Below, one piece after another: positions 5,624 through 61,230 of a DNA stretch of 64,000 nucleotides. The position numbers and the translations under genes are program-made. The DNA comes from an uncultured Candidatus Saccharibacteria bacterium. Its GTDB lineage: Bacteria; Patescibacteriota; Doudnabacteria; UBA920. The stretch is from assembly GCA_964490395.1 (NCBI GenBank), contig CAZBAS010000006.1, positions 8,081 to 72,080 on the forward strand, given 5' to 3'. The notes under the pieces are model-generated. The model searched no databases. It saw only the letters and a program-made list of their open reading frames with translations, and was not told where the DNA came from. Each line of letters opens with the position of its first letter. The first letter of the stretch is position 1.

Positions 5624-5678
5624 GGTTCTACATTGGTAATTGGAAATTCGGAATTGAATATTTGTGCTACTCGACTTA

Positions 5679-7454: not shown

Positions 7455-7535
7455 ATATAAAAGCGGAATTTAGAATGGCGAATGTAGAATAAAGAGTGTA
7501 GCAGATTAGAAGAGGGTAGCCCCTTTTGATTATCT

Positions 7536-8399
7536 CTAATGTACCTGCGACGTAGTGATGAGCCGTCTCCAGGGTCCAGTAGGCACTTCTGATTCTTCCA
7601 CGAATTGCCAGCTTACTGTATTTTCGTCGTTATTTAGTCCTTGGAATTTAAGGCAGTCACGTAGTGCAGGAGAGACGTCCATGCCCGCACTGTTTGCTTC
7701 CGTGTTTTTGGGTCGTTCGTCTTTACTCCCAAATACATATTGGGCGTCGCTATATTCATAAGGTCCTGCGTCTTCTATCTGTCCGTAGCAGGCAACGGTG
7801 CCATGAGTAATTTTTACCCATTGGTTTTTCATGAGCGATTCTTCCTTGCTCCAGCTCTTGTCTTTGGCCCATGGTACTACTTGCAGCGCTGTTGGTTTGC
7901 GGTCGCCCTCATCTGTAAAGTCATTATAGGGCAAGTCTAAGTAAAACGGATTTTCTTTGGGTATGCAACCAGCAGGGAAGTAGCCGTTTCGTTTTTCGGG
8001 ATTATCAAAACACCCAAAGTGGTCTTGCCATGCGTCGTCCCATGCGCTTACTGCGTTGTTTTCCGAAGATCCATTTCCCACTGGCTCGCCAATCCAAAAT
8101 ACGGTAGCGGTTATGTTGGTGTGGGCGGGATAGGTGGTAGGTTGCCCGCCCGAGGCGGGTCCGCCTTGGGCGGATAAGTTGTCAGTTGTAAGTTGTTCGG
8201 AAACAGGAGAAGGGGGTGGTACTTTTGATGGGGGAAGGGTAGTGGGGGCAATATCCTGCATGCCTGTACTTACTGCAGAGCTGCTATTTGTGGTCCCTGA
8301 GTTAGTGATAGTATTTACATGCCTCGAGTGTTTCCAAAAAGCAATACCCACAAGTACGGCTAGAAGTATTATGCAAATGAGCATCCATTTATTCCGCAT
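7536..8399 (-). CDS. hypothetical membrane-anchored extracytoplasmic protein
   Basis: Has an N-terminal TM helix, a Pro/Ser/Thr-rich linker and a Trp-rich globular domain. No family recognised. Confidence 0.5.
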   Translation of the reverse strand: MRNKWMLICIILLAVLVGIAFWKHSRHVNTITNSGTTNSSSAVSTGMQDIAPTTLPPSKVPPPSPVSEQLTTDNLSAQGGPASGGQPTTYPAHTNITATVFWIGEPVGNGSSENNAVSAWDDAWQDHFGCFDNPEKRNGYFPAGCIPKENPFYLDLPYNDFTDEGDRKPTALQVVPWAKDKSWSKEESLMKNQWVKITHGTVACYGQIEDAGPYEYSDAQYVFGSKDERPKNTEANSAGMDVSPALRDCLKFQGLNNDENTVSWQFVEESEVPTGPWRRLITTSQVH

Positions 8400-18501: not shown

Positions 18502-20289
18502 ATGAAAACATTTAAACATATAAACAAAAAATACTTAGTGGTAAGCGCGCTTGTAATTGCAGGCGCGCTTTTGGTGTGGAGTTTTTATTGGGTTGGGGTG
18601 TTTTCCGGTTCCCCTCCTAAGGTAGGAGGGGCTAGGGGTGGTATGAAAGAAAATGCTACCGTAATCCATCCTGCCACGGTCATGCAACCGGATCTGTACC
18701 CAACTTTGAATAAAGTGGATGAGATCCCTGCTGCTACTGAGAAAGTCTACGGCGGTATAGTATCCCACCATTTCTACATGGAAGAGGATATAGGGAAGCT
18801 GTTTTTACAGTTACGCCAGCAGAATCCATCTGTGGTGGTAATAGTGGGTCCGAACCATTTTAATGCAGGCAATGCAGACATACAAACTTCTACTGCTTCG
18901 TATACTACTCCCTTTGGTCAGCTCGATGGCGATCTGCCGCTCGTTAGTCGCTTGGTCGCAGACGGCGCTGCAACTCATGAGGAGCTCGCTTTTGAGCGCG
19001 AACATTCCATAGGGGCACTTGTTGGTTTTACAAAGAAAGTATTTCCAAATGCTAAATTACTTCCCATTATCATGCGTCGCAACGCAAGTCCTGGCCGTAC
19101 GGAACAACTTGCAGCTGAGCTTGAAAAAATACTTCCCCAAGATGCGCTCGTCCTGGCGAGTGTAGATTTTTCGCATCACTTGGATAGGTTTGCAGCTGGC
19201 TTCCACGATAGCCAGTCAGTGGCTGCGTTGCTTTCTGCGGACTTCAACCGCATTCGCAGTCTAGAAGTAGATAGTCCGCAGAGTTTAGAAGTGCTTATGC
19301 GCTACCTGGAGAGCCGGGGAGCACTGCATATGGAATATAAAAATACGAACCAGGCAGTGTATGGCGGTAACTTGATGTCCGATGACGTAACCAGCTATGT
19401 GTTCGCGAAATTTACGTCTTCTTCCAGCCCTCCCCCTCAAGAGGGGTCTCCCTCCTCTTCCTCCCCTAATATAGGGCCCGCTACGCCGGAGCGTAAGCGA
19501 GGCGAGGAGGCTAGGAGGGGTATAATTTCGAACATCGTACCACCCCTAACCCCTCCTATCCTAGGAGGGGGAAAAGACACAGCCACCCTCCTACATCTTG
19601 GGATATTCAATGCAGGCATGCTTGAATCTAACGAAGGCAAGGCCCTCTACGCACTTGGTGGCCCAGAAAATAATTTCCTCCGCGGCGGAGATTTAAAAGT
19701 TATTGGTACGAATAATAAAACAAGTTGTAACTCAGCGCGCATTCCAGCACTTGAGCGCTATAAGATCAATGTATTCAACTCACAGTCATGCGCAAATACC
19801 TTTGTGTTTGGCTCAGAAAATAGAAATTATAATGTAGGTTTTATTTCTATAGCTCAAGGTGAAAACGTAAGCAAAGCAGTAGCTATCCAAAAAAAGAATT
19901 ACGCTTACGTGGCTGTTCAGGTTCCCGCTAGTGCCGAAGCCCAAAGTGCCATCGATTACGGCGCAGATGCAGTCTTTATTCAAGACGGTGCAGCAAAAGT
20001 TGAACTATACAAAAACAAACCCATCATTCATCACCCGGCATCAAATACATCAGGTTTCAGTACTGGCGTAGTATTTAATCCAGCAGGTGCATCAAATATC
20101 GCAGAAGCTTCCTCTGATTCCTCCCCTAAAATAGGGGAGGCTAGGTGGGGTATAAAACTGTACACCTTCCCATACCAACTAAAAAACAATCAACTCACCC
20201 GCCTCGATATTTCTGCAAGACTAAAATCCTGTAAACAAATTTTAACCGGACTAAAAAATGTAGATGGTTGCTCTGCAAGTATCCAGTAA
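18502..20289 (+). CDS. membrane-anchored MEMO1-family (AmmeMemoRadiSam protein B-like) domain fused to a C-terminal domain of uncertain (possibly CapA/metallophosphatase-like) affinity
   Basis: Shows the N-terminal TM helix and the Memo-like motifs VIVGPNHF, TPFG, EHSIGA and SVDFSHH. The C-terminal segment AIDYGADAVFIQDG...LYKNKPIIH is CapA-like. The ORF is interrupted in-frame by three GC-rich palindromic elements. Confidence 0.6.
   Translation: MKTFKHINKKYLVVSALVIAGALLVWSFYWVGVFSGSPPKVGGARGGMKENATVIHPATVMQPDLYPTLNKVDEIPAATEKVYGGIVSHHFYMEEDIGKLFLQLRQQNPSVVVIVGPNHFNAGNADIQTSTASYTTPFGQLDGDLPLVSRLVADGAATHEELAFEREHSIGALVGFTKKVFPNAKLLPIIMRRNASPGRTEQLAAELEKILPQDALVLASVDFSHHLDRFAAGFHDSQSVAALLSADFNRIRSLEVDSPQSLEVLMRYLESRGALHMEYKNTNQAVYGGNLMSDDVTSYVFAKFTSSSSPPPQEGSPSSSSPNIGPATPERKRGEEARRGIISNIVPPLTPPILGGGKDTATLLHLGIFNAGMLESNEGKALYALGGPENNFLRGGDLKVIGTNNKTSCNSARIPALERYKINVFNSQSCANTFVFGSENRNYNVGFISIAQGENVSKAVAIQKKNYAYVAVQVPASAEAQSAIDYGADAVFIQDGAAKVELYKNKPIIHHPASNTSGFSTGVVFNPAGASNIAEASSDSSPKIGEARWGIKLYTFPYQLKNNQLTRLDISARLKSCKQILTGLKNVDGCSASIQ
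18607..18645. repeat. GC-rich palindromic element, short version, in-frame in CDS (encodes SGSPPKVGGARGGM)
   Basis: ggttCCCCTCCtaaggtaGGAGGGGctaggggtggtatg. Confidence 0.7.
19425..19572. repeat. composite GC-rich palindromic element cluster in-frame in CDS (CCCCCTCAAGAGGGG hairpin, then the long-version element, then a CCCCTCCTA-tcc-TAGGAGGGG hairpin)
   Basis: ccctccccctcaagaggggtctccc ... cctcccctaatatagggcccgctacgccggagcgtaagcgaggcgaggaggctaggaggggtat ... cccctcctatcctaggagggg. It encodes SSSPPPQEGSPSSSSPNIGPATPERKRGEEARRGI...PPILGGG. Confidence 0.7.
20119..20155. repeat. GC-rich palindromic element, short version, in-frame in CDS (encodes SDSSPKIGEARWGI)
   Basis: tCCTCCCCTAaaaTAGGGGAGGctaggtggggtataaa. 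Confidence 0.7.
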
Positions 20290-21377: not shown

Positions 21378-22430
21378 ATGCAAGAACTATCTCTATACAA
21401 AAAACAATTTGACCGTAAACTGGCGGCCTTTTTTAATGCCCGCTTAAAAACCTATAACAAACTCGGAAAAGGTACCTTGGTGCCAAAGTTTATAGAGCAG
21501 ACTAGTGTCATTGCATTGGCGGGCGGTAAAAGGTTTAGACCATATTTAGCCGCCTTATCTCACGAGACGTTTGGGGGCACATCACCGATAATAGATGACT
21601 TGGGTATGGCCCTCGAGTTGTTCCATTTGTTTGGATTGACTCATGACGATATTGTGGATAAGGGTGCGAAACGACATGGTGTGGAGACAGTCCATATTTA
21701 TACTAAAAACAAATTGCAGGCGCATCGTCGCCTCGGCGAGATTGAACATATTGGAAAAGGACAAGCGATATTCGCGGGTGATTTGCTCTTTATGTGGTCA
21801 CAAGAGTTATTTATTGGATCTGGGAATATGGACACAGGGCGAAAGCTGGCACTGGATGCATTTCGGACTATGATGGACGAGGTATTTGTAGGGGAAATGG
21901 TGGACATAGATTTGACTACTCAGGCCAAGGCGAGTCGTGCAGATATTGAACGAAAAAATATCTTGAAAACTGCTCGATATACTTTTGTGTGTCCAATACG
22001 GGTAGGGGCTAGGTTGGCTACCAAAAATACTTCCGTAGACGTATTTTCAAAAAAATTTGGCGAGGCTTTAGGCTCCGCATATCAGATACAAGACGATGTG
22101 CTGGATATATTGAATGAGTCTAGCGATAAAACTAATTTGGTGGACATTTCAGGCCGCCAGCATACATATCTAACATATTATATGCAGGAAGAAGCAGCAC
22201 CTAAGTACCGCAAGCGCTTTAACCAATTGTTCGGAGCTCCTATTGAAACGCTGGATGCAAAGGTAGTTAAGTCGCTGTATGTTGAGTCAGGGGCTGTGAG
22301 TTATGCAAATCGAATAGCAAGCGTCCAGTTTAAAAAAGCCCACGCCGCATTGAAGGCCTATCCTATTCCCAAAAAATTCATTTCGGCATGGGAAACAGTA
22401 ATTGATATAATAGAAAATCGTAAGTCATAA
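21378..22430 (+). CDS. crtE: polyprenyl diphosphate synthase (probable geranylgeranyl diphosphate synthase)
   Basis: Has the two Asp-rich motifs LTHDDIVD and IQDDVLD of the trans-isoprenyl diphosphate synthases. It lies directly upstream of crtB and crtI. Confidence 0.75.
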   Translation: MQELSLYKKQFDRKLAAFFNARLKTYNKLGKGTLVPKFIEQTSVIALAGGKRFRPYLAALSHETFGGTSPIIDDLGMALELFHLFGLTHDDIVDKGAKRHGVETVHIYTKNKLQAHRRLGEIEHIGKGQAIFAGDLLFMWSQELFIGSGNMDTGRKLALDAFRTMMDEVFVGEMVDIDLTTQAKASRADIERKNILKTARYTFVCPIRVGARLATKNTSVDVFSKKFGEALGSAYQIQDDVLDILNESSDKTNLVDISGRQHTYLTYYMQEEAAPKYRKRFNQLFGAPIETLDAKVVKSLYVESGAVSYANRIASVQFKKAHAALKAYPIPKKFISAWETVIDIIENRKS

Positions 22431-23294
22431 ATGGATTTGAATTTGCAAGAAGGCTATGAAGCCTGTAGAAAAATAATGAAAGCGAGTGGTAAAAGTTATT
22501 ACTTTGCCACGAGTCTTTTTGGTGACGTGTGGATGAAGCGGTCTACGTGGGCGCTCTATGCATTTTTTAGGATTCCGGATGATATAGTAGACGAACAGTT
22601 AGACAAAGCGCCCGAAGCGTTAGATGCAGAGCTGGCTGACTTTGCCCAGGGTTGGCGAGCTGCACTGGCAGCAGGAACGAGTAAAGACCCCAAGATGGCG
22701 GCAATAGTAGACACATATAAAAGGTGTGCCATTCCTGTAGAGTATGGCGAGTCGTTTCTGCACTCTATGGCTTTGGATATTCATAAAAAACAGTATGCAA
22801 CGTACCAAGACCTAGAAGAATACATGTACGGCTCAGCAGGAACTGTGGGCATAATGATGGCAATGGTCATAGGCTTTGTAGACGCACAAGCCCCTGAATA
22901 CGCCAAAACCCTTGGCTATGCCATGCAACTTACAAACTTTTTGCGCGACATAGATAAGGACTATCAAGAACTAGGGCGTATATACATGCCACAGGATGAA
23001 CTTGCTAGGTTTAACCTGTCCAACGCAGATATAGCGAACCGGGTGTGGTCAGAAGAATTTAAAGCGTTTATGCAGTTTCAAGTGAACCGTGCTTGGACTT
23101 TATACGAAGAAGGTAACAAGTGCTTGCCGCTGCTAAACCCCAAGGGTCGCTTTGCATACAAAATGGCTAGTGTGTTGTATTCGCGCATACTTACAAAGCT
23201 CGCGCAGCAGGACTTTAATCCTTTTGTTGGGAGAGCCTCTACGTCTCTGGCTGAAAAAATGTGGCTATTGGCTAAAACTAAAGTACTGGGTTAG
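22431..23294 (+). CDS. crtB: phytoene synthase (squalene/phytoene synthase family)
   Basis: Has YYFATSLFGDVWMKRSTWALYAFFRIPDDIVDE and the second Asp-rich motif region. It overlaps the crtE stop. Confidence 0.85.
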   Translation: MDLNLQEGYEACRKIMKASGKSYYFATSLFGDVWMKRSTWALYAFFRIPDDIVDEQLDKAPEALDAELADFAQGWRAALAAGTSKDPKMAAIVDTYKRCAIPVEYGESFLHSMALDIHKKQYATYQDLEEYMYGSAGTVGIMMAMVIGFVDAQAPEYAKTLGYAMQLTNFLRDIDKDYQELGRIYMPQDELARFNLSNADIANRVWSEEFKAFMQFQVNRAWTLYEEGNKCLPLLNPKGRFAYKMASVLYSRILTKLAQQDFNPFVGRASTSLAEKMWLLAKTKVLG

Positions 23295-23415
23295 AGTACA
23301 ATTTTCAATTTTTAATTTTACAATTTTTAATGAATTAGCAAATATCTAAACATTGAAGTTTTAAAATGGTAAATTGGAGATTTTAAATTGATTGAAAATT
23401 GTAAAATTGAAAATT

Positions 23416-25035
23416 ATGGCTTCATCTAAACGCGTAATTATCATCGGTTCTGGTATTGGTGGGCTCGGGTCAGCGAACTTGCTGGCTAAGCTTGGCTATG
23501 AAGTAACGGTGCTGGAGAAAAATGACTATCTGGGTGGCCGCGCCGGCCTTATAGAGGAAGCAGGGTACAGGTTTGATAAGGGTCCTTCTTGGTACTTAAT
23601 GCCGGACGTGTGGGAACATTATTTTGGACTGCTTGGGAAAAAGGTAGAAGATTATCTTACTCTCAAGCAACTCAGTCCAAGCTATAGAATATTTTTTGAA
23701 AGCGATCGTCATTCCCGATCCAGTCGGGAATCCAGTGTCGCCATGTCAGCGACACAGCTTAACGGCCCCGATGTGAAATCGGGGCTGGATCCCCGCGGGC
23801 GCGAGGATGACAATGCTCACTTTGTAGACATGTATGCAGATGTAGAAAAGACTGCTGCGTATTTTGAAAGTCTAGAAGCAGGCGCAGGGGAAAAGTTTAA
23901 GGCGTACTTGAAAATGACAGCGCATGCCTATGAAACCGCAAAAGAGCTGTTCATGTACAAGAACTATGACTCCGTGTTTGACCTCTATGACAAGCGGGCA
24001 TCCAAAGCAAAGCTATCACCGCACCTTCTCGGTTCCATGCATCGCTACGTGAGCAAGGAATTTAAAAACGAACGCATACAAAAAATACTCCAGTACCAAC
24101 TAGTATTTCTTGGCGGCTCGCCCTATAACACTCCTGCGCTCTATTCCATTATGAACCACATAGACTTTAACATGGGCGTGTTTTATCCTATGGGTGGCAT
24201 TTATGAAATTATTAACGCCCTAGTCAACATTGGTCGTGAGTTTGGAGTTACGTACAAAACGAATGCAGCAGTTAAACGGATTGTGGTAACGGGAGGAAAA
24301 GCGAGTGGAGTAGAGCTTGAAGATGGGACCGTTATTGAATCCGACTTGGTTGTATCAAATGCAGACATCTACCACACAGAAACAGCGTTGCTTGCACCGG
24401 AGTATCGAGAACACACAGAAAAATACTGGCAGAAGCGCACGCTTGCTCCTTCGGCGTTCATTATGTACTTAGGCATTAAAGATAGGGTGCCTGAACTTAC
24501 GCACCACAATTTATTATTTGCCAAAGACTGGGCGCAAAATTTTGCAGATATATTTGACCATCCTAAATTTCCCGAAAAGCCTTCAGTATATGTGTGCGCG
24601 CCAAGCGTAACCGATGACACTGTAGCACCGGCAGGAAAAGAAAACCTCTTCGTGCTCGCGCCCATTGCCCCGGGCCTCGAATATACTTCTGAGTTTTTAG
24701 AGCAGTATGGAAATAATCTCCTTGACTGGCTTGGCCGCGAAATGGGCGTGGAAAATCTGCGAAGCCGAGTTGAGTATAGAAAAGAATATTGTGTAAAAGA
24801 TTTTGCTGCAGACTACAACAGTTTTAAAGGTACAGCCTTGGGTCTGGCTCATACGTTACGTCAGAGTGTATTTCTTCGGCCAAATAATATAAGCAAAAAG
24901 GTACAAGGGTTGTACTACGTTGGTGCTGGCACTAACCCTGGCATTGGTATGCCCATATGTTTAATTTCTGCGGAGTTGCTTGTTAAGCGACTCCTTGGTA
25001 ATGCAACTGCGGAGCCGCTCTTAAAACTTGAATAG
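23416..25035 (+). CDS. crtI: phytoene desaturase (CrtI-family FAD-dependent oxidoreductase)
   Basis: Has the N-terminal VIIIGSGIGGLGSANLLAKLGYEVTVLEKNDYLGGRAG dinucleotide-binding motif. The CrtI-family C-terminus is present (GLYYVGAGTNPGIGMP). The ATG at 23416 was chosen. It contains an in-frame GC-hairpin cluster. Confidence 0.85.
   Translation: MASSKRVIIIGSGIGGLGSANLLAKLGYEVTVLEKNDYLGGRAGLIEEAGYRFDKGPSWYLMPDVWEHYFGLLGKKVEDYLTLKQLSPSYRIFFESDRHSRSSRESSVAMSATQLNGPDVKSGLDPRGREDDNAHFVDMYADVEKTAAYFESLEAGAGEKFKAYLKMTAHAYETAKELFMYKNYDSVFDLYDKRASKAKLSPHLLGSMHRYVSKEFKNERIQKILQYQLVFLGGSPYNTPALYSIMNHIDFNMGVFYPMGGIYEIINALVNIGREFGVTYKTNAAVKRIVVTGGKASGVELEDGTVIESDLVVSNADIYHTETALLAPEYREHTEKYWQKRTLAPSAFIMYLGIKDRVPELTHHNLLFAKDWAQNFADIFDHPKFPEKPSVYVCAPSVTDDTVAPAGKENLFVLAPIAPGLEYTSEFLEQYGNNLLDWLGREMGVENLRSRVEYRKEYCVKDFAADYNSFKGTALGLAHTLRQSVFLRPNNISKKVQGLYYVGAGTNPGIGMPICLISAELLVKRLLGNATAEPLLKLE
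23706..23825. repeat. cluster of three to four GC-rich perfect hairpins inserted in-frame in crtI (a sequence family distinct from the CCCCTCC elements)
   Basis: ATTCCCGA-tccag-TCGGGAAT; GTGTCGC-catgtca-GCGACAC; GCCCCGAT-gtgaa-ATCGGGGC; CCGCGGGCGCG. Together they encode about 40 extra residues (SDRHSRSSRESSVAMSATQLNGPDVKSGLDPRGRED). Confidence 0.5.
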
Positions 25036-25866
25036 CGGATACACTATGTAGCAAAAGATGCTAAATCCGAGTATGGCATTGAGTAGTGGAAACCACGTAT
25101 ACACCCGAAATATTCGGGTGTTATTTTTCCCTTGAGCTGCAAGCGCAATCATAATTATATACAAGGCTCCCAGTATGACGCTAAGGATGTGTAGATAGGG
25201 AAAGGAGAGTATGGCGGCGCCTGCGTAACACAGGGCGCAAAAGAGAAGCGTGCCCATCCTTCCGAGTTTCGTGGCAATGGTGTGGAGCCCTACTTTTGCA
25301 TCGGATGCTATGTCGGGTATGGCAGAGAATGCATGCATGGCCATAACCCAGAGCGTTCCGGCTAAAAATATACTCCAGGTAAATTTTGTGCCGCCCCCAA
25401 GATAGTACGCAAACCATCCAGGGAATAAATAAAGTATGTTAAACATGCTGTCCAGTAGTGGTTTTGTTTTGGCGCGGATGGGCGGCGCGGAATAAAACAA
25501 ACTAAAGAGCAAAAAGCCAATCATGGCCAAAATGTTTCGGAGAGGCAGGCCAAACGCAATGATCCAAAAAGGTAGGTTGGTGTATACAATCCACTTCATG
25601 AGTGAGTCGTGCATGCTTGGCGAGACCAGTAGTTCGTAGTGTTGTTTCTTTGGATTCTGTTTGTCAGTTTCGTAGTCGTATGTATCGTTTACGCCGTATA
25701 TAAACAAATTGGCTGGAAACAAAAAATAAACGAGAAACAGTAGCACCCAACCACTGTGCAGGTCGTTCACCGCTCCTGCTGCTGCGGCAGTGCCAATTAA
25801 AAAAGGACCGGCTGTATAGAGCCAGAAACGGGGGCGACTTATTTTAAATACACTCGAGATTTGCAT
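25021..25866 (-). CDS. UbiA-family prenyltransferase (possibly a carotenoid-modifying prenyltransferase, judged from its context)
   Basis: Has the Asp-rich motif NDTYDYETD and 7-8 TM helices. It overlaps the crtI 3' end on the opposite strand. Confidence 0.7.
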   Translation of the reverse strand: MQISSVFKISRPRFWLYTAGPFLIGTAAAAGAVNDLHSGWVLLFLVYFLFPANLFIYGVNDTYDYETDKQNPKKQHYELLVSPSMHDSLMKWIVYTNLPFWIIAFGLPLRNILAMIGFLLFSLFYSAPPIRAKTKPLLDSMFNILYLFPGWFAYYLGGGTKFTWSIFLAGTLWVMAMHAFSAIPDIASDAKVGLHTIATKLGRMGTLLFCALCYAGAAILSFPYLHILSVILGALYIIMIALAAQGKNNTRIFRVYTWFPLLNAILGFSIFCYIVYPLFKF

Positions 25867-27961: not shown

Positions 27962-29470
27962 ATGGTTCATCCTTCACGCGTAAGAAAATTGAACACAGCT
28001 GAAAGTGGTACGGAAGGTCCGGTTGTATATTGGATGAGCCGAGACCAGCGCGTGGCTCACAATGCAGCGCTGGCTTACGCAGCACAACTCGCCCGCGAAT
28101 ATAATCAGCCACTCATGGTGGTTTTTTGCCTACGCAAAAAATTTGCCCACGGAACAGAGCGCCTTATAGATTTCATGCTCACAGGCCTAGAGGAAGTGGA
28201 AGCAGACCTCGTAAAGAAAGATATCCCATTTTACTTTTTGCTCGGAAGGCCGGAAATAGAAATTCCAAAATTTATACACGAGCATAGTGTTTCTGCTTTG
28301 GTTTCAGATTTTTCTCCGCTGAAGACTAATCGTCAGTGGAAAGAGCATGTATCCGAAAGAATCAAAATTCCATTGTATGAAGTGGACGCCCACAATATAG
28401 TGCCGTGCTGGGCTGCAAGTCCTAAGCAAGAATTTGGCGCATATACCATTCGCCCAAAAATACATAGGCTCCTTTCTGAATATCTGCAAGATTTTCCAAG
28501 ATGGAATTATACCCCACCTAACCTCCCCTATATTAGGGGAGGAAAGAATGCCGATAGTGGATCCATTGATGCAGACGCCTCCTCCGGTACCCCTCCTAAG
28601 ATAGGACCCGCTACGCTGGAGCATAAGCGAGGCGAGGGAGCTAGGGGTGGTATGGATTGGAGCCACATTCGATCCCAAATAGAAGTAGATACTTCTGTGC
28701 CAAAAGTGGACTGGATTGTGCCAGGGGAAAAAGCAGCACATAAAATGGTAAAACATTTTATTGCCCATAAATTAAAAACCTATAACGAAAATAGAAACGA
28801 CCCCACTAAGGATGTTCAGTCCAATCTTTCTCCCTATCTTCATTTCGGCCACATATCGAGCGAGCAAGTAGTCTTAGAGGTTCTCAATGCCACAGGCCTC
28901 AGTCTTGCCGAAGTGCTAGAAAAACATACTGCAAGCACAGAGCCACTTAAGCTATCGGCCACATCGTTTATTGAAGAGCTTGTAGTGCGCAAAGAACTTT
29001 CCGATAATTTTTGTTTCTACAATAAATTTTACGATTCAACAAAGGGGTTTCCTGCGTGGGCGCTAAAAACTCTGAATGAACATCGCGGTGATGTGAGAGA
29101 ATACACATATACGCTCAAGCAGTTAGAAGAGGCGAGCACGCACGATGACCTATGGAATGCTGCGCAATTGGAAATGGTTAAGCGGGGTAAAATGCACGGC
29201 TACATGCGCATGTACTGGGCCAAGAAAATATTTGAATGGAGCAAAACACCAGAGAAGGCCGTAGAGCATGCTATATACTTGAACGACAAATATTTTTTGG
29301 ACGGACGTGATCCAAACGGTTATACAGGCATAGCCTGGTCCGTTGGTGGCGTGCACGACCGCGCGTGGTTTGAGCGGTCTATATTTGGTAAAATTCGCTA
29401 CATGTCTTACGGCGGCGCGAAAAGTAAATTTAAAATTGCTGAATATATACAAAAGATCAATGCACTATAG
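27962..29470 (+). CDS. phr: deoxyribodipyrimidine photolyase, class II CPD photolyase
   Basis: The N-terminus VVYWMSRDQRVAHNAAL and the C-terminus GYTGIAWSVGGVHDRAWFERSIFGKIRYMSYGG are class II photolyase signatures. It contains an in-frame insertion of GC-rich palindromic elements. Confidence 0.85.
   Translation: MVHPSRVRKLNTAESGTEGPVVYWMSRDQRVAHNAALAYAAQLAREYNQPLMVVFCLRKKFAHGTERLIDFMLTGLEEVEADLVKKDIPFYFLLGRPEIEIPKFIHEHSVSALVSDFSPLKTNRQWKEHVSERIKIPLYEVDAHNIVPCWAASPKQEFGAYTIRPKIHRLLSEYLQDFPRWNYTPPNLPYIRGGKNADSGSIDADASSGTPPKIGPATLEHKRGEGARGGMDWSHIRSQIEVDTSVPKVDWIVPGEKAAHKMVKHFIAHKLKTYNENRNDPTKDVQSNLSPYLHFGHISSEQVVLEVLNATGLSLAEVLEKHTASTEPLKLSATSFIEELVVRKELSDNFCFYNKFYDSTKGFPAWALKTLNEHRGDVREYTYTLKQLEEASTHDDLWNAAQLEMVKRGKMHGYMRMYWAKKIFEWSKTPEKAVEHAIYLNDKYFLDGRDPNGYTGIAWSVGGVHDRAWFERSIFGKIRYMSYGGAKSKFKIAEYIQKINAL
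28521..28655. repeat. GC-rich palindromic elements in-frame in the photolyase gene (CCTCCCCTA-tat-TAGGGGAGG hairpin plus the long-version element)
   Basis: acCTCCCCTAtatTAGGGGAGGaaag ... ccCCTCCtaagataGGAcccgctacgctggagcataagcgaggcgagggagctaggggtggtatg. It encodes ...SGTPPKIGPATLEHKRGEGARGGM. Confidence 0.7.
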
Positions 29471-30836: not shown

Positions 30837-31823
30837 TTATTTTTTATCGTGGAATTTTTTGTGCACTTCACGGAGCTGCTCGTTGGTAACGTGAGTGTAT
30901 ATTTGCGTGGTGGTGATGCTCGCATGACCAAGCATAGTCTGTACACTGCGAATGTCTGCGCCGTTGCGCAGTAGATCTGTGGCGAACGAGTGCCGAAACA
31001 CGTGCGGGGTTACTTTAGTGGTGACCCCGGCAAGCATAGCGTACTTATGAACCATACGTTGTACAGACCGCGCCGAAAGGCCGGCAGCTTCGTGCTGGCT
31101 TGCAGTTTGTATTTTTCCTTGAGCATCCATTTGCGCCGTTACGCTTTGGCCAATACTGGTGTGTGCGATAAACAATGCTGGGTGGTTGTCGGTTCGTTTG
31201 TCTAGATACGCCTTCAGCGCTTTAACTGCATCGGGAGATAAAAACACCAGGCGAAGTTTGTCGCCCTTACCGCGAACGGTAAATTCACCTCGGTCCAGGT
31301 TTATCATGCGCTCGGTAAGTTGTACTAGTTCGGAAACACGAACGCCCGAAGCAAATAGGGTATGAAGAATGGCAGTGTCGCGCAGCCGAATAAGCTCGTC
31401 GCTTTCTTGCTCTACGGCTTTTAAAATTCGCGAGAGTGCATCGTCGTCTAGTGCGTGGACTTCGCGACTCGGGTTTTTAGCAAGCTCTATTTTTTCTGGA
31501 GACAGAGTGTCTATGTCGTGCTTCATTAAGTATTTTAAGAATGCCCGGAGCGCAATAACATGGTAGCTCTGTGTTATTTGTTTTAAGTGTCTACCCTTGT
31601 CATCTACAAACCGATTTAAGTATAGGCGGTATTTTCTAACCACGTCGAGAGTTATGTCGCTTGGTTTGCCAAGGCCTTCACTGCGCGCGAACCCAGCAAA
31701 ACGACCCAAGTAGTGGTCGTAGTTTTTAATAGTTTTAAGACTCTTGTTTTTTTCTATTTCGCAGTACTCCAGGAAGTCCTGGATATGGTTTTGGAGCGGG
31801 CTGCGTTTGGGTAGTTCTGACAT
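30837..31823 (-). CDS. site-specific tyrosine recombinase, XerC/XerD family
   Basis: The C-terminal catalytic region contains HVFRHSFATDLLRNGADIRSVQTMLGHASITTTQIYTHV, with the R...HxxR...Y residues. The N-terminus is a SAM-like domain. Confidence 0.85.
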   Translation of the reverse strand: MSELPKRSPLQNHIQDFLEYCEIEKNKSLKTIKNYDHYLGRFAGFARSEGLGKPSDITLDVVRKYRLYLNRFVDDKGRHLKQITQSYHVIALRAFLKYLMKHDIDTLSPEKIELAKNPSREVHALDDDALSRILKAVEQESDELIRLRDTAILHTLFASGVRVSELVQLTERMINLDRGEFTVRGKGDKLRLVFLSPDAVKALKAYLDKRTDNHPALFIAHTSIGQSVTAQMDAQGKIQTASQHEAAGLSARSVQRMVHKYAMLAGVTTKVTPHVFRHSFATDLLRNGADIRSVQTMLGHASITTTQIYTHVTNEQLREVHKKFHDKK

Positions 31824-35295: not shown

Positions 35296-36462
35296 ATGGA
35301 TTATTTTGAAATTCTAAAAAAAGATGAGAAGTCATTTGCGCGGACTGGAGTTATTCATACCGCACACGGAGACGTACAAACGCCTCAGTTTTTGCCTATT
35401 GGCACGCGTGGCACCGTAAAAACCGTAACCAGTGAAGAACTTAAATTTTGGGGCGCTACCATGGTACTGGCAAATACCTATCACTTGTGGCAACGGCCAG
35501 GCGACGGGCTTATTTATAAAGCTGGTGGGCTGCATAAATTCATGAACTGGAAAGGGCCCATCTTTACCGACTCGGGTGGATTCCAGGTGTACAGCCTGGC
35601 AAAGATGCGCAAAGTCATGGAAGTGGGTGTGTATTTTCAGTTCGACCTAGATGGCAAACACGAAATACTTTCTCCGGAAAAATCTGTAGACATACAAGCA
35701 AACCTGGGGAGTGATATTTGTTTGATACTCGATGATTTTCCTGGTTACCCGTTTGAACATGCTCGCTCAAGCGAATCCATAGCGCTGACCAACCGCTGGG
35801 CAGAGCGCGCCATGCAGGAATATAAAAAAATAATTCTAGACGGCGACCCCGTAAACCCAGGACAAAAACTGTGGGGTATAGTTCAGGGCGCAAACTTTGA
35901 AGACCTTCGAAAACAGTCTGCCGAGGACATGGCTAAGCTTGGTTTTGAAGGATTTGCCATTGGCGGTGTGGCTGTAGGAGAACCGCATGTGGAAATGATG
36001 AAAGCCATAGACTATGCTGTGCCATATTTGCCGGAAAATACCCCAAAGCATTTACTCGGTGTGGGTACGCCATTCGACATAATTCAAGGTGTGGCCCGTG
36101 GCTGCGATACGTTTGATTGCGTTATTCCAACTCGCGAGGCGCGGCATGGTCGCTTGTATGTTGCCAAGCGAAATGAAGCAGGGGAAGAAGGCTACGAAAC
36201 CATCGACATACGCTTAGAAAAACACAAAGAAGATTTTGTGCCAATTGACGCTACCTGTAATTGTTATGCCTGTCTTCACCATACCCGGGCCTATGTACGG
36301 CACCTCTTCCAGACCGGTGAACCTTTGGGCGAGCGTCTTGCAACCATGCACAATTTACGGTTCTACTTGAACTTTATGGAAAAAATTCGCACTGCTATTC
36401 AGTTCGATTACTTCGACAAAATACTCACAGAATTTAGAGATTATACTGACGTAAAAGAATAG
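35296..36462 (+). CDS. tgt: queuine tRNA-ribosyltransferase
   Basis: Has the TPQFLPIGTRGTVK N-terminus, the zinc-site motif CNCYACLHHTRAY near the C-terminus, and the Tgt TIM-barrel motifs. Confidence 0.9.
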   Translation: MDYFEILKKDEKSFARTGVIHTAHGDVQTPQFLPIGTRGTVKTVTSEELKFWGATMVLANTYHLWQRPGDGLIYKAGGLHKFMNWKGPIFTDSGGFQVYSLAKMRKVMEVGVYFQFDLDGKHEILSPEKSVDIQANLGSDICLILDDFPGYPFEHARSSESIALTNRWAERAMQEYKKIILDGDPVNPGQKLWGIVQGANFEDLRKQSAEDMAKLGFEGFAIGGVAVGEPHVEMMKAIDYAVPYLPENTPKHLLGVGTPFDIIQGVARGCDTFDCVIPTREARHGRLYVAKRNEAGEEGYETIDIRLEKHKEDFVPIDATCNCYACLHHTRAYVRHLFQTGEPLGERLATMHNLRFYLNFMEKIRTAIQFDYFDKILTEFRDYTDVKE

Positions 36463-36774
36463 CCAATTTTTTCATTTTGACTACTCAGGCAACTAGGGTG
36501 TATCTTTAATTTACTACTATCCCCCATATATGCTGCAAGATATAAACTTTACTCCAATATTTGAATATATTGATGCAAAGAATGATGAACTGCTTGAAAA
36601 AATGCAGGGTATTTTTGCCACCAAAGAAGATGTAAGGTGTATTAATGATAGGCTTGCACAGATCAGTTTTTTTATATAATCTATAAGTAGCTATGAAGGC
36701 GGTGGCGCGCTGGAGCTGAATTGAATAAAGATGGTCCCGCTAAGCGGGACAAATAGGGTGGAACCGCGGGTGAA

Positions 36775-36822
36775 GACTCGTCCCTAGATATAAGTAATTA
36801 TATTTAGAGACGAGTTTTTTGT
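36775..36822 (+). terminator. intrinsic terminator (ACTCGTC ... GACGAGT stem with a 26 nt loop, followed by T6)
   Basis: gACTCGTCcctagatataagtaattatatttagaGACGAGTtttttgtatttt. It would terminate a short upstream transcript (a 49 aa ORF or an ncRNA). Confidence 0.5.
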
Positions 36823-36831
36823 ATTTTCTTG

Positions 36832-36923
36832 TCCCCCTCCTAAGATAGGAGGGGCTAGGGGTGGTATGAGTCATTCGTAATAAATTTCGTACCCCATCTG
36901 ACTTCCCCTATCTTAGGGGAAGG
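36832..36923. repeat. intergenic copies of the GC-rich palindromic element (a complete short version plus an inverted partial copy)
   Basis: tCCCCCTCCtaagataGGAGGGGctaggggtggtatg (near-identical to the in-gene copy at 18607) and cTTCCCCTAtctTAGGGGAAgg. Neither lies in a coding region. Confidence 0.7.
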
Positions 36924-36963
36924 ACAGGACAAACATATGTGCTATTAATAATCGTATATATCT

Positions 36964-38349
36964 ATGGCAAACAATACCGAAATGATGGATAAGATAATTA
37001 GCTTGTGCAAGCGTCGCGGTTTTGTATTTCCGAGCTCGGAAATATATGGCGGCTTCGCTGCAACGTATGATTACGGACCTCTGGGGTTCTTGCTTAAGAA
37101 AAATCTTGAGCAGGCTTGGCGCTATTGGAATACACAAAAGCGTGACGATGTAGTAGAAATAGAGGGCGCCATTTTTATGCATCCACGCGTATGGGAGGCG
37201 AGTGGCCATGTGGGTGGTTTTGCAGATCTTTTAGTGGAAGATCTTGTTACTCATAAGCGGTACCGGGCCGATCACTTAATAGAAGAGGCTGGGCTTATGG
37301 AGAACGCAGGCGGGCTTACCACCGACCAGGCAACCGATCTGATAAAAGCGAAGGGTCTTAAGAGTCCCGATGGCAATGCACTGTCCGATGTGAAAAAATT
37401 CAACCAGTTAGTGAAAACTCACCTCGGTGCTACCGAAGATGATACAACATTGGTGTACTTGAAGGGGGAGAGTTGTCAGAACATTTATCTAGACTGGAAA
37501 GCCGTGCAGGAGACAACTCGGAGAAAGCTGCCGTTTGGTATAGCACAAATAGGTAAGGCTTTTCGCAATGAAATTACCGTAAAGAATTTCTTGTTCCGCA
37601 CGCGCGAGTTCGAACAGATGGATGTGCAGTATTTCTGCAGGCCAGAGGATGCAGACAAGTATTATGAAGAGTGGAAAACGTATCGGATGGATTTTTATGC
37701 TGAGCACATAGGTTTCTCAAAAGAGAACTTGCGCTGGCGCCAGCACGATGACGACGAGCGCGCGTTTTACGCAAGGGATGCCTGGGATATTGAATATAAC
37801 TTTGCCGGTATGGGCTTTAAGGAAATGGAGGGCTTGCATAACCGTGGCAGCTACGATTTAGATCAACATTCTAAATTCTCTGGGCAAGACCTGACTTACT
37901 TTGATGACGCCACGAACGAAAAGTTCAATCCATACATTGTGGAAAGTTCGGCTGGTTTTAACCGATTATTCCTCTCAACATTGTTTGAGTTTTATCGCGA
38001 GGAAGAACGCAATGGTGAAACAAGAACATATTTGGCACTGCCTCCAAAACTTGCCCCGTATAAGGTTGCTGTATTCCCTTTGCTTAAAAACAAGCCAGAG
38101 CTAGTAGAGAAGGCACGAGGTATATACCAAATTCTACGCGAGGCCGGTATAAACGCTGCCTGGGATGACCGAGGAAACGTGGGGAAGCGATACTATAGCC
38201 AAGATGAAATAGGAACCCCATTTTGCATTACAGTAGATTTTGACACCTTGGAAAATGAGAGCGTAACAGTACGCGACCGCGATACCGCAGAGCAGGAGCG
38301 CATTGCTATTGCGGACCTTCCTGCTTACATTGCCAGTAAAATAAAGTAG
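36964..38349 (+). CDS. glyQS: glycine--tRNA ligase (dimeric class II GlyRS)
   Basis: Has the N-terminus FVFPSSEIYGGFAATYDYGPLG and the class II motifs characteristic of the alpha2-type GlyRS. Confidence 0.9.
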   Translation: MANNTEMMDKIISLCKRRGFVFPSSEIYGGFAATYDYGPLGFLLKKNLEQAWRYWNTQKRDDVVEIEGAIFMHPRVWEASGHVGGFADLLVEDLVTHKRYRADHLIEEAGLMENAGGLTTDQATDLIKAKGLKSPDGNALSDVKKFNQLVKTHLGATEDDTTLVYLKGESCQNIYLDWKAVQETTRRKLPFGIAQIGKAFRNEITVKNFLFRTREFEQMDVQYFCRPEDADKYYEEWKTYRMDFYAEHIGFSKENLRWRQHDDDERAFYARDAWDIEYNFAGMGFKEMEGLHNRGSYDLDQHSKFSGQDLTYFDDATNEKFNPYIVESSAGFNRLFLSTLFEFYREEERNGETRTYLALPPKLAPYKVAVFPLLKNKPELVEKARGIYQILREAGINAAWDDRGNVGKRYYSQDEIGTPFCITVDFDTLENESVTVRDRDTAEQERIAIADLPAYIASKIK

Positions 38350-58111: not shown

Positions 58112-58219
58112 CTCACACTAACTTTTGGTCTATCGGGATATCGTATACCGGTAGTACGCGCCCATGGGGTGGGCGTAGACTGGGTTCAATTCCCAGTATC
58201 CCGACCAAAAGTTAGTGTG
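58112..58219. repeat. 17 bp perfect inverted repeats (CACACTAACTTTTGGTC / GACCAAAAGTTAGTGTG) bracketing tRNA-Pro
   Basis: The left arm ends 5 nt before the tRNA 5' end. The right arm overlaps the tRNA 3' GACCA. Together they would form an extended precursor stem. Confidence 0.6.
58134..58207 (+). tRNA. tRNA-Pro (anticodon GGG)
   Basis: CGGGATATCGTATACCGGTAGTACGCGCCCATGGGGTGGGCGTAGACTGGGTTCAATTCCCAGTATCCCGACCA. The anticodon stem is CGCCC/GGGCG with loop AUGGGGU, and CCA is encoded. Confidence 0.85.
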
Positions 58220-59228: not shown

Positions 59229-60050
59229 ATGAAATACGTTAAAGCACTGATAGTTTTTATTGGCATTGTATGGCTGGCTACTGCGCCTATTGCTATGCAT
59301 GCACGACCTGGTAGTATTTTGCATAGGGTAAATAGTATTGTAAACGAGCCTGTATGGGCCTGGATTCACATTACCCAAGATGGCCGGGCCGATACCGTGG
59401 AAAAACAGCTCGAGCAGCGGTATACAGACATAGAACATGCCTGGAATAGCAAAGAGGCGTGGCAAGAGCCGTGGGCGTATAAAGCTGAAGATGCCACTGC
59501 GGGAAGAGTAATTGCGCAAATACATAGCGCCATAGCGGCTCAGGACTTTAAGGTAGCGGACACGCTGACTGCACATGCCCTTGCCCTGTCCCGCGGACAT
59601 AAACAAGTTATGCTTGGCTTAATTACTAAGCCTGGCATAGGGAAAACTGCGGCAGATGTTACCTTTATGGATACGCGCATAAACGCACTTACCGAGCTCC
59701 GCCAGAGTATTGCCCAGAAATTTGCTACGGCATACAGTAGAACGGAACTGGTAAAAGGTATAGATGATAAACTTATACAACTAGATACCTACGTCGCCAC
59801 TGCAGATACTGACTTCCAAGTTGCGGACGCGGTAGTAGGGGATACAGAACGGCTGGCCATACAGAACACTCTCAAATACGCTAAAACATTGCAGGCCGCG
59901 GCAAAAGACAAGCTCGCCAATGACCAGTATGTAGATGCCTACCGCTATGCAAACGATGCAGAGGGCTATGCGAAAGAGGTTTCTATAGTAGTAACAGCCG
60001 CACAAGAGTTTTCCATCCACACTCCCACCAGTTTCCTTCCTGTGCAATAG
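59229..60050 (+). CDS. hypothetical secreted protein
   Basis: Has an N-terminal signal/TM segment (ALIVFIGIVWLATAPIAMHA). No family recognised. Confidence 0.5.
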   Translation: MKYVKALIVFIGIVWLATAPIAMHARPGSILHRVNSIVNEPVWAWIHITQDGRADTVEKQLEQRYTDIEHAWNSKEAWQEPWAYKAEDATAGRVIAQIHSAIAAQDFKVADTLTAHALALSRGHKQVMLGLITKPGIGKTAADVTFMDTRINALTELRQSIAQKFATAYSRTELVKGIDDKLIQLDTYVATADTDFQVADAVVGDTERLAIQNTLKYAKTLQAAAKDKLANDQYVDAYRYANDAEGYAKEVSIVVTAAQEFSIHTPTSFLPVQ

Positions 60051-61147
60051 TGGTAGCGACAGGAGCCAAACGCATGCAGATACAACCAGAAGACTACAAT
60101 TTTGAGTTTCCCGACTCTCTTATTGCCCAAAGCCCTGCGCATCCTCGTGATAGTGCGCGGCTTTTGGTTTACGACAGAAAAACCAGCACAGTTGCATTGG
60201 ATATATTTAAAAATCTGGTACAGTACCTACCTCCCCGCGCAGTTATTGTATTTAATGAAACCAAAGTTATTCCGGCGCGTTTCTATGCGTATAAGCCCAC
60301 TGGCGGTAAGGTGGAGTTGCTATATACAGGTAAATCGGAAAAAACTTTTGACGCCCTTGCAAATAGATCGCTAGTAGTCGGTGATGTACTTTGTTTTCGA
60401 TCCGGTTCCTCCCCTAAGATAGGGGAGGCTAGGAGGGGCATGAACCAAGAGCACGATATTACCGTTACGAAAAAACTATCCAAAGGATACCGTTTTACAT
60501 CGTCATTCCCCATTTCTCAGTTATTCTCTATTCTCGACAGGCACGGTGTTACACCTATACCGCCGTACATAAAAAATAATACATTTGCGGAAAAGAAACT
60601 TCGCACAGAGTATCAGACTGTGTTTGCGAAGTCGCAAGGCTCAAGCGCAGCACCAACTGCGAGTCTACACTTTACGAAAAACCTTCTGGCGAAATTTGAG
60701 AAAGCGGGAATAGCTACCGAGTATGTAACATTGCATGTGGGGCTCGGCACCTTCGCACCGCTCACGGAGAAACATCTGAAAACCAAAAAACTTCATAGCG
60801 AGTACTATGAAATTACGCCATCTGTTGCAAAGCGGCTGGAGCGCTATAAAAAACAGGGCAGGCCAATAGTTGCTGTGGGGACGACCGTGGTCCGTACACT
60901 CGAGTCCGCTGCTTCGCGTGCGGGAAAGCTTGGTAAGCTTTCCGGAAAAACTGAAATATTTATTTACCCGCCGTATAATTTTAAATTTGTAGACAGCCTC
61001 ATTACCAACTTTCATGTACCCAAGTCCAGCCTTATGATGCTGGTAGCAAGTTTAATTGGTCGTGAAAAGCTGCTTGAGTTGTACGTCTTGGCGGTAAAAA
61101 AGAAGTTTAGGCTGTTTTCGTTTGGTGATGGCATGCTCATAAGATAG
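60050..61147 (+). CDS. queA: S-adenosylmethionine:tRNA ribosyltransferase-isomerase
   Basis: Has QSPAHPRDSARLLVYDRKT at the N-terminus and conserved QueA motifs throughout. One GC-rich palindromic element is inserted in-frame. Confidence 0.85.
   Translation: MVATGAKRMQIQPEDYNFEFPDSLIAQSPAHPRDSARLLVYDRKTSTVALDIFKNLVQYLPPRAVIVFNETKVIPARFYAYKPTGGKVELLYTGKSEKTFDALANRSLVVGDVLCFRSGSSPKIGEARRGMNQEHDITVTKKLSKGYRFTSSFPISQLFSILDRHGVTPIPPYIKNNTFAEKKLRTEYQTVFAKSQGSSAAPTASLHFTKNLLAKFEKAGIATEYVTLHVGLGTFAPLTEKHLKTKKLHSEYYEITPSVAKRLERYKKQGRPIVAVGTTVVRTLESAASRAGKLGKLSGKTEIFIYPPYNFKFVDSLITNFHVPKSSLMMLVASLIGREKLLELYVLAVKKKFRLFSFGDGMLIR
60407..60443. repeat. GC-rich palindromic element, short version, in-frame in queA (encodes SSPKIGEARRGM)
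   Basis: tCCTCCCCTAagaTAGGGGAGGctaggaggggcatg. Confidence 0.7.
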
Positions 61148-61178: not shown

Positions 61179-61230
61179 CCCCGGGTTCCCCTCCCCAGGC
61201 GGGGGGAGAGGCCAGGAGAGAGGTTGAATC

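Follow-up and report, generated by a model that had tools for sequence, protein, structure and literature searches.

In a 64-kb stretch of DNA (64,000 nucleotides; hereafter the window, with positions counted from its first letter) from an uncultured Candidatus Saccharibacteria bacterium, the spacer between tgt and glyQS contains a palindromic doublet of 103 bp at positions 36827-36929. The doublet is one discrete, non-coding, hairpin-forming repeat rather than two separate copies of a palindrome. On balance, it is probably a derivative, lacking an open reading frame (ORF), of a cassette that encodes a DUF559 nuclease, comparable to MITEs, the miniature inverted-repeat transposable elements, and to REPINs, the hairpin-forming doublets of repetitive extragenic palindromic (REP) sequences, and it probably resides in the 5' untranslated region (5'UTR) of glyQS as a passenger, not as a regulator of that gene. 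A previous sequence-only reading of this region recognised that the element is defined at the level of DNA, a conclusion that stands, and assigned a possible regulatory role to the two copies, which is not supported; the T-box upstream of the doublet, its nature as a single element, its spread across phyla and its relation to DUF559 were not seen in that reading.

Anatomy of the palindromic doublet

The limits of the doublet are those of its long hairpin, with the consensus element extending from about 36830 to 36927. Each of its two units is ~40 nt in length, and consists of a 9-bp hairpin with C-rich and G-rich strands, to which a G-rich tail is joined by the short linker YTAGG. The arm A unit (36830-36869, plus strand; nhmmer E 7.5e-13, inverted repeat I2) is composed of TT/GT, CCCCTCC, TAAGATA, GGAGGGG, CTAGG and GGTGGTATG, with its small hairpin at 36834-36854. 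The complete element previously described upstream of glyQS, tCCCCCTCCtaagataGGAGGGGctaggggtggtatg at 36832-36868, lies within this arm, 132 nt before the ATG codon at 36964, and is indeed nearly identical to a copy inside a gene, matching 18611-18646 at 35 of 36 positions. The arm B unit (36887-36926, minus strand; nhmmer E 2.9e-11, inverted repeat I4) is inverted and diverged, and is composed of CCTTCCCC, TAAGATA, GGGGAAG, TCAGA and TGGGGTA, with its small hairpin at 36902-36922. The sequence TTCCCCTAtctTAGGGGAA, thought to represent an inverted partial copy, is present at 36903-36921 and is inverted, but belongs to this complete, diverged unit and is not partial. The arms are separated by an AT-rich centre of ~17 nt (36870-36886), as defined by alignment to the ends of a DUF559 cassette (L207) considered below.

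Both units fold into one long hairpin with a predicted free energy of -52.7 kcal/mol over a 116-nt region (z -5.67, with 0 of 200 shuffled sequences as stable), in agreement with the proposal that the two copies could form a larger hairpin or cruciform. The core palindrome pattern is matched 4 times in the window, as compared to 0.06 matches expected from shuffles, or ~70-fold above chance. The doublet also has the size and structure by which MITEs are defined, that is, a length below ~300 bp, terminal inverted repeats, and no coding capacity. Matches of the doublet in an E-value Rfam scan were to plant and animal miRNA hairpin models, and were dismissed as generic long-hairpin matches.

Neither unit is covered by a reading frame. 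Across the units, no stop-free span exceeds 55 codons in any of the frames, and the sequence of the slot is unconserved in relatives; a check for an in-frame coding region over the copies thus leads to the conclusion that they are non-coding. It is extremely improbable that the copies represent an unrecognised small coding gene or chance low-complexity palindromes. A 44-aa ORF (36740-36874, minus strand) and a 98-aa ORF (36913-37209, minus strand) do overlap the edges of the doublet, but neither spans it, the former overlapping a conserved terminator and the latter lying antisense to glyQS; the short stop-free span, the excess of the pattern over chance and the stability of the fold are equally at odds with this explanation.

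The glycine T-box leader and the glyQS slot

The doublet lies in a spacer of 501 bp (36463-36963), close to the 500 bp estimated previously, and both flanking genes are confirmed by Pfam. The 5' neighbour is tgt (35296-36462, plus strand; PF01702, E 7e-137), encoding queuine tRNA-ribosyltransferase, and the downstream gene is glyQS (36964-38349, plus strand; PF00587 and PF03129), encoding an alpha2-type (class II) glycyl-tRNA synthetase (GlyRS). Homologues of this GlyRS are named glycine--tRNA ligase and come from Patescibacteria, to which the window is assigned on their basis.

Upstream of the doublet is a glycine T-box leader (36623-36788, plus strand), found by an E-value Rfam scan as a match to RF00230 (49.4 bits, E 7.3e-10) that does not reach the gathering score of 93; Rfam at gathering thresholds returned tRNAs only. 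The T-box sequence AAAUAGGGUGGAACCGCGGG at ~36752-36771 is aligned to the RF00230 model together with the antiterminator helix, and Stem I is very short in this alignment. There are two candidate glycine specifier codons, GGC (36698-36700) and GGA (36712-36714), both of which are conserved and are not distinguishable on that ground. The T-box is followed by an intrinsic terminator (36772-36821, plus strand; inverted repeat I1), with a stem of ~21 bp and a U-run, that is evident from folding and conserved in relatives, and whose 5' half overlaps the antiterminator. A simple terminator and promoter scan overlooked this terminator owing to mismatches in its stem, and the fold was used in its place. 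The T-box core shared with relatives begins at ~36688, and is nearly identical in five of their loci (L001, L003, L005, L007 and L008). With its short Stem I, the glycine T-box upstream of glyQS may represent a compact Patescibacteria variant. Thus located between the T-box terminator and the ATG codon, the doublet is part of the read-through 5'UTR; 34 nt separate its end from the AUG, and no U-tract follows it.

A comparison of glyQS loci with GlyRS protein identities of 99, 96, 95, 90 and 84% to that of the window shows that the T-box core and terminator are nearly identical in all relatives, with the 130-500 nt from the terminator to the ATG being unrelated. At 99% identity (L006), the slot holds the window doublet with one substitution. 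At 96% (L001 and L002) it holds an AT-rich imperfect long hairpin, which is also found at 90% (L007), and at 95% (L003, L004 and L005) a cluster of four other small hairpins. At 84% (L008), the slot is occupied by a GIY-YIG gene (Pfam E 2e-15) lying within its own inverted repeats, TGTCATCCCGACTGAA...GGAGGGATCCCT. Since the content of the slot is unrelated among relatives, the region from terminator to ATG is an insertion hot spot, and the doublet, judging from these alignments, a recent and strain-polymorphic passenger.

Two side observations concern these loci. Position 1 of the L006 contig falls inside the doublet, as expected if such repeats break short-read assemblies. The GIY-YIG gene of L008 (1960-2500 of that locus) encodes 107 aa, and is a second type of nuclease-plus-palindrome cassette at the same landing site.

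The doublet is recent and unconserved, which speaks against selection for regulation. It is improbable that the hairpin functions within the glyQS leader as an mRNA stabiliser, RNase III processing site or translational modulator selected for that purpose. Its great stability in a read-through 5'UTR and the occurrence of some structured insert in the slot of every relative would fit such a role, as would the precedent of Correia elements, which RNase III cleaves when they are co-transcribed, with altered mRNA levels (PMC10969869). However, the slot lacks conservation of either sequence or structure among strains with 84-96% GlyRS identity in which the T-box and terminator are nearly invariant, and identical elements are present in unrelated places that include the interiors of ORFs. 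In addition, the position of the hairpin, 34 nt before the AUG and without a U-tract, allows for neither occlusion of the start site nor termination. The doublet lies 3' of the conserved T-box and terminator, and it is this T-box, rather than the palindrome, that controls glyQS; the proposed regulatory structure in the glyQS leader is therefore not sustained.

For the passenger reading, the doublet would have landed in the sole roomy non-coding slot of a compact locus, the glyQS 5'UTR from the T-box terminator to the start codon. On read-through of the T-box, it would be co-transcribed as a stable stem-loop 34 nt 5' of the AUG. Its effect on glyQS expression is most likely neutral, and would be at most modulatory; by analogy with the RNase III-cut Correia elements (PMC10969869), a modest effect on the stability or processing of the glyQS mRNA is possible.

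Distribution and conserved pairing of the unit

A degenerate pattern of the unit, CCYCYCCTANNNTAGGRGRGGYTAGG, was scanned against one genome per species, and at least 116 blocks were matched. They derive from Patescibacteria (including Saccharibacteria), Desulfuromonadia (including Geobacter) and Bacteroidota (including Prevotella), as well as from Marithrix, Nitrospirota, Chloroflexota and Lysobacteraceae, among others. The units are arranged as convergent doublets, divergent doublets or solos in a lineage-specific manner, with 23, 7 and 19 of these, respectively, in Patescibacteria, and with 22 of 23 being divergent in Desulfuromonadia. The window doublet can be aligned over its full length with ORF-less convergent doublets of Prevotella and of various classes of Patescibacteria. 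Doublets are typically heterotypic, one arm having CCCCTCC/GGAGGGG and the other CCTCCCC/GGGGAGG.

The doublets share a predicted structure of three hairpins in RNAalifold, corresponding to the left arm, a tail-tail pairing, and the right arm. Compensatory changes, where both sides are altered and the pair is kept, are found in 9 of 30 pairs, for instance C-G to U-A at 6:6 and 8:4. Because of these changes, base-pairing itself is considered to be under selection. Only 4-15% of the units in the blocks of other genomes lie inside long ORFs, leaving 85-96% outside. Together with the non-coding nature of the leader copies, the compensatory changes and the extragenic location of most units bear out the previous view that it is DNA (or structure), and not the peptide that it may encode, by which the element is defined.

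The exact unit pattern has no match among 2.9 million viral contigs, and blastn searches of plasmid and phage collections gave no match to the doublet. A phage or plasmid vector for the doublet was rejected on these searches.

The same features raise the question of whether the doublet is a REP/REPIN-type element, moved by a REP-associated tyrosine transposase (RAYT; Y1 HUH) or an IS200/IS605-like single-strand transposase encoded elsewhere in the genome, with DUF559 as a frequent neighbour or cargo. Two inverted short palindromes that form a long hairpin are REPIN-like in architecture, units are mostly extragenic in other genomes, and covariation that preserves hairpins is what transposases recognising single-stranded DNA hairpins would select. 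Moreover, a dedicated transposase is not known for some REP superfamilies (PMC3733652). We nevertheless regard this explanation as unlikely. The GTAG or CGTC head by which REP sequences are defined (PMC3733652) is absent next to the palindrome, and no recurrent transposase-like family is found near units in the 116 blocks among the matches listed, nor is there any in the window. The start and stop codons of DUF559 genes are furthermore integrated into the units in several phyla, as detailed below, which neighbourhood alone does not explain.

DUF559 nuclease cassettes bounded by the unit

The units are matched terminal inverted repeats of DUF559 cassettes in many phyla. When all ORFs within 1.2 kb of units were clustered, the sole small family recurring across phyla at 0-34 nt from units, in the blocks among the matches listed, was a protein of ~110-125 aa. 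This family corresponds to PF04480 (DUF559), which is Vsr-like, with Pfam E-values of 1e-25 to 1e-30. On the upstream side, and in several phyla, a unit in the plus orientation is followed after a few nucleotides by the ATG codon, such that the G-rich tail occupies the Shine-Dalgarno position. On the downstream side, the last codons of the gene enter an inverted unit, with the stop codon often lying in its loop (...ACC ACC CCT AAC CCC TCC TAA). As a result of this arrangement, C-terminal tails encoded by the palindrome, such as TTPNPS and LPPLTPPYKGGE, are present in about a third of the 120 closest DUF559 homologues in the database. An ATG directly after the tail was considered as a universal vestigial start codon and rejected; it follows 16 of 135 units as compared to ~2 expected, and so is enriched but not general.

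An independent sample of 68 DUF559 loci from metagenomes, which were not selected for the presence of units, gives the same picture. Here, a hairpin was defined as a perfect stem of at least 7 bp with a C-rich 5' arm, located between -45 and +60 nt of the stop codon or up to 110 nt 5' of the start codon. Such hairpins are found near the stop codon of 45 DUF559 genes (66%) and upstream of the start codon of 46 (68%). For control ORFs of at least 150 aa, the corresponding values are 0% and 2-4% in the window and in L001-L008, and 8.7% and 8.0% in the unit-selected blocks. When upstream flanks are compared to reverse-complemented downstream flanks, those of one cassette match better (mean score 19.4) than those of different cassettes (12.9), and the inverted repeats are therefore matched cassette by cassette. 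Additional hairpins, located between arm and tail and similar to those of the 'long' units of the window described below, were observed in the flanks of four of the metagenome loci (L138, L142, L181 and L205).

A link specific to the window doublet is provided by the L207 cassette, on a contig that also encodes a small acid-soluble spore protein (SASP) and is probably from a Firmicute. This DUF559 cassette has heterotypic B and A arms like those of the window doublet, and the reverse-complemented doublet aligns to both of its ends, the region of the start codon included. At the centre of the window doublet, the minus strand reads TGGGGTAcGAA-ATTTAT, as compared to TGGGGTAtGAAcATTTAT for the first codons of the L207 DUF559 gene. 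Gene-carrying and ORF-less forms also occur together. In L205, a contig from Andersenbacteria that provides a second such link, a solo unit, a cassette and, between two genes, a doublet without an ORF are found within 20 kb and share one arm type. In L047, truncated gene remnants are found beside a unit.

Residues D51, E62, D64, H68 and D77 of DUF559 are invariant in 30 sequences, a result that applies to the cassettes, the window copy having no ORF. Given this invariance of catalytic residues, activity of the DUF559 nucleases is probable. Homing endonucleases are known to be built on the Vsr fold, as in I-Bth0305I (PMC3239194; PMC3424549).

One cassette, in a metagenome-assembled genome of Bacteroidia (L115, about 5630-7999), was observed to be complete, with both units and the ORF, and stop-free in frame within a long ORF. 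The host ORF has an NPPY methyltransferase-like motif, and a whole cassette can apparently ride inside a host reading frame.

Similarity of the YTAGG linker to the Vsr site, C^T(A/T)GG, was also considered, and is a weak speculation only, as other DUF559 flanks have TAGG, CTGG, ATCAAGG or a single C.

Origin of the doublet

If the doublet is a derivative of such a cassette, the ancestral DUF559 gene would have been on the minus strand, and the window copy would have arisen through loss of the ORF. The DUF559 nuclease may then act in trans on the hairpin ends, with units, doublets and cassettes being spread or maintained as host replication or repair copies them.

A different relationship between gene and doublet is suggested by the fact that a cassette is, in effect, a doublet with an ORF in its centre. 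The ORF-less doublet could be an empty homing site, the target of a free-standing gene for a DUF559 homing endonuclease, rather than a deletion derivative; the nuclease would cut the centre of the doublet, repair would copy the gene in, and the doublets themselves would spread by some other route. The use of the Vsr fold by EDxHD homing endonucleases, the intact active-site residues of DUF559, and the presence of cassettes and ORF-less doublets together in one genome are all compatible with this arrangement. It is the apparent decay of a start-codon region in the centre of the window doublet, along with the gene remnants of L047, that points instead to loss of an ORF, and homing does not account for units that have dispersed to unrelated places, among them the QueA loop described below. 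We thus consider a homing site to have a small, though real, chance of being the correct explanation, somewhat above that given to a RAYT-type element.

Origin from a DUF559 cassette by loss of the ORF is the explanation that we favour, although several observations weigh against it. There is no DUF559 gene within the 64-kb window, and a partner in this organism is thus unproven; neither tblastn with DUF559 and GIY-YIG queries nor Pfam scans of ~55 ORFs revealed a transposase, DUF559 or GIY-YIG gene there. Among the unit-selected blocks (the matches listed), a DUF559 gene is present in only 7 of 116, and the YTAGG linker is not universal in DUF559 flanks. The match to the vestigial start region is short, at about 11 nt. 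At the glyQS slot, no clean empty site was found at nucleotide resolution from which to set the insertion boundaries or a target-site duplication, every relative having a different insert. The only sequence shared at the edges of the doublet is TT...AA, which continues the palindrome. To our knowledge, DUF559 is a nuclease only, with no known strand-transfer activity or transposition chemistry. The hairpins that flank the DUF559 genes could also be signals for expression or stability of the gene rather than ends for transposition.

A broader proposal is that DUF559 genes in matched inverted repeats of the hairpin-plus-tail type form an unrecognised, multi-phylum class of mobile cassette that is driven by a nuclease, and that seeds REP- and MITE-like repeats by way of ORF-less doublets and solos. 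This proposal is offered tentatively, and we consider it somewhat more likely to be wrong than right. Such a class would be neither a classical insertion sequence nor a homing gene borne by an intron or intein. The repeats seeded would be those of Patescibacteria, Bacteroidota, Desulfuromonadia, Firmicutes and other phyla, including in-frame insertions in housekeeping genes and insertions in riboswitch leaders, as at glyQS. Neither an association of DUF559 genes with such flanking repeats nor this repeat in Patescibacteria was found described in the literature searched, the coverage of which was incomplete, such that a prior description is possible.

Comparison with known repeats and homing genes

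The doublet resembles the REP sequences, bacterial interspersed mosaic elements (BIMEs) and REPINs of Enterobacteria and Pseudomonas, with their RAYTs, in that those are short (20-40 nt), G+C-rich, imperfect palindromes that are often present as inverted pairs forming a larger hairpin. Like the units, REP sequences are of high copy number and mainly extragenic, with a minority in genes, and are commonly co-transcribed (PMC3733652). The units differ in reading TT-CCYCYCC...GGRGRGG-YTAGG without an adjacent GTAG or CGTC tag, and in flanking a gene for a PD-(D/E)XK nuclease of the DUF559 family rather than a Y1 transposase. No RAYT (Y1) gene flanked by units was found in the window, and none recurs in the 116 blocks among the matches listed, which do not cover whole genomes. 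In addition, the unit of 26-40 nt is nearly the same across many phyla, unlike a REP family, which is usually confined to one species or genus.

Bacterial MITEs such as the Correia elements, or Neisseria miniature insertion sequences (NEMIS), are likewise about 100 bp in length, with terminal inverted repeats, no ORF and multiple copies, and have their origin in a larger element that has the same ends and carries a gene; the counterpart here is the DUF559 cassettes found in other genomes. Correia elements also insert near gene starts and are co-transcribed as a hairpin, which is a substrate of RNase III. Here, however, the gene-carrying relative encodes a nuclease and not a DDE or other known transposase, no transposase domain being present in the cassettes or in the window. 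Each arm is furthermore a hairpin plus a tail, giving a fold of three hairpins, and no target-site duplication is established.

In their behaviour, the units are similar to the Rickettsia palindromic elements (RPEs), which are palindromic repeats of reduced genomes that are inserted in frame in housekeeping genes and add a peptide loop. The counterpart here is the location of 7 of the 9 units of the window in three ORFs, with the QueA copy being a loop insertion. RPEs are ~100-150 bp in length, are confined to Rickettsia, and have no known partner gene, in contrast to a unit of ~40 nt that is found in many phyla and is linked to DUF559.

Similarities also extend to the homing endonucleases with a Vsr (EDxHD) fold, such as I-Bth0305I, and to free-standing homing genes. 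These are small selfish nucleases with a Vsr-like core in which E, D, H and D are conserved, and they are inserted between or inside host genes with variable presence or absence. For the known EDxHD enzymes, the location is a group I intron or a phage genome and DNA is bound by NUMOD domains, whereas the DUF559 cassettes encode ~110-130 aa and are chromosomal, with hairpin inverted repeats at their ends and ORF-less copies alongside; the unit is absent from the viral contigs.

For the glyQS locus, the analysis removes a false lead, in that the palindrome is not the regulator of the gene. More generally, it ties the abundant 'orphan' DUF559 or Vsr-like genes to the C-rich/G-rich palindromes of uncultivated genomes, and to loop insertions, in frame, within the essential genes of Patescibacteria with reduced genomes. 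Should the nuclease indeed drive the repeats, the two would form a host/parasite pair of the REPIN-RAYT type that is built on a different enzyme. There are also practical consequences, as the repeats break assemblies (as in L006), inflate ORF calls, add spurious peptides (SPPK.GGARGG and TTPNPS, for example) to predicted proteins, and place variable structured RNA in 5'UTRs.

Copies of the unit in genes of the window

A hidden Markov model (HMM) of the unit finds 9 copies in the 64 kb, 7 of them short and 2 'long', in three paired arrangements and three solos. Only the pair in the glyQS leader is non-coding; the other seven are contained in three long ORFs, which encode a Memo-like protein, a photolyase and QueA. 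The Memo-like ORF (18502-20289) has the largest number, namely the unit at 18607-18647 (plus strand) that is nearly identical to arm A, a doublet in the opposite orientation at 19458-19574 (minus strand; B arm 19458-19525, of the 'long' version, and A arm 19535-19574), and a B-type unit at 20117-20155 (plus strand). The photolyase ORF (27962-29470) contains a divergent pair at 28507-28654, with a unit on the minus strand at 28507-28545 and a long unit on the plus strand at 28586-28654. The queA gene (60050-61147) contains a single unit at 60404-60443 (plus strand) that encodes SGSSPKIGEARRGMN. All of these units are in-frame insertions that keep the ORF open, which is not the case for the non-coding copy in the glyQS leader.

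The QueA loop that contains SGSSPKIGEARRGMN has only 2-4 residues in homologues with 70% identity or less, and the insert is degenerate at 79%. The homologues without the insert are too diverged to give nucleotide boundaries. In relatives at 82-85% identity (P0243 and P0244), one or two further unit-like inserts are present in the same loop, adding up to ~45 residues. Because the loop is short in distant homologues and variable in relatives, the in-gene copies are read as insertions tolerated in permissive loops; the QueA copy, as a lineage-specific insertion, is a further argument for definition at the DNA level. This surface loop of QueA is, by itself, a hot spot in a protein loop for these repeats.

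The two 'long' units have a nested hairpin of ~29 nt (CCCGCTACGCCGGAGCGTAAGCGAGGCG) at 19477-19506 and 28606-28636. Between the two nested hairpins there are two substitutions (C to T, and G to A), which are seemingly compensatory within the hairpin. A degenerate unit-like sequence, CCCCTCCCCAGGCGGGGGGAG AGGCCAGGAGAGAGG at 61183-61230, adjoins the start of a DUF3048 gene (61231); it was matched by a pattern search with 2 mismatches, and was not recovered by the unit HMM.

Other features of the window and related loci

Within the tgt-glyQS spacer of the window is an unconserved 49-aa ORF (36530-36679) with no Pfam match. In the relatives with 95-96% GlyRS identity, two extra genes (355 aa and 246 aa, without a Pfam family) are found between tgt and glyQS, at about 1555-3520 of L001, L003 and L005, with no trace of them in the window at 36463-36690.

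Elsewhere in the window, the sole recombinase is a Xer-like tyrosine recombinase (30837-31823), and a tRNA-Pro(GGG) at 58134-58207 is predicted by ARAGORN, unreported by Rfam at its gathering threshold. A run of genes of the isoprenoid/carotenoid type (21378-25866) includes a polyprenyl synthetase, a squalene/phytoene synthase, an amine-oxidase-type desaturase and a UbiA prenyltransferase. This run, along with the nearby photolyase (27962-29470), represents unusual content for a reduced Patescibacteria genome.

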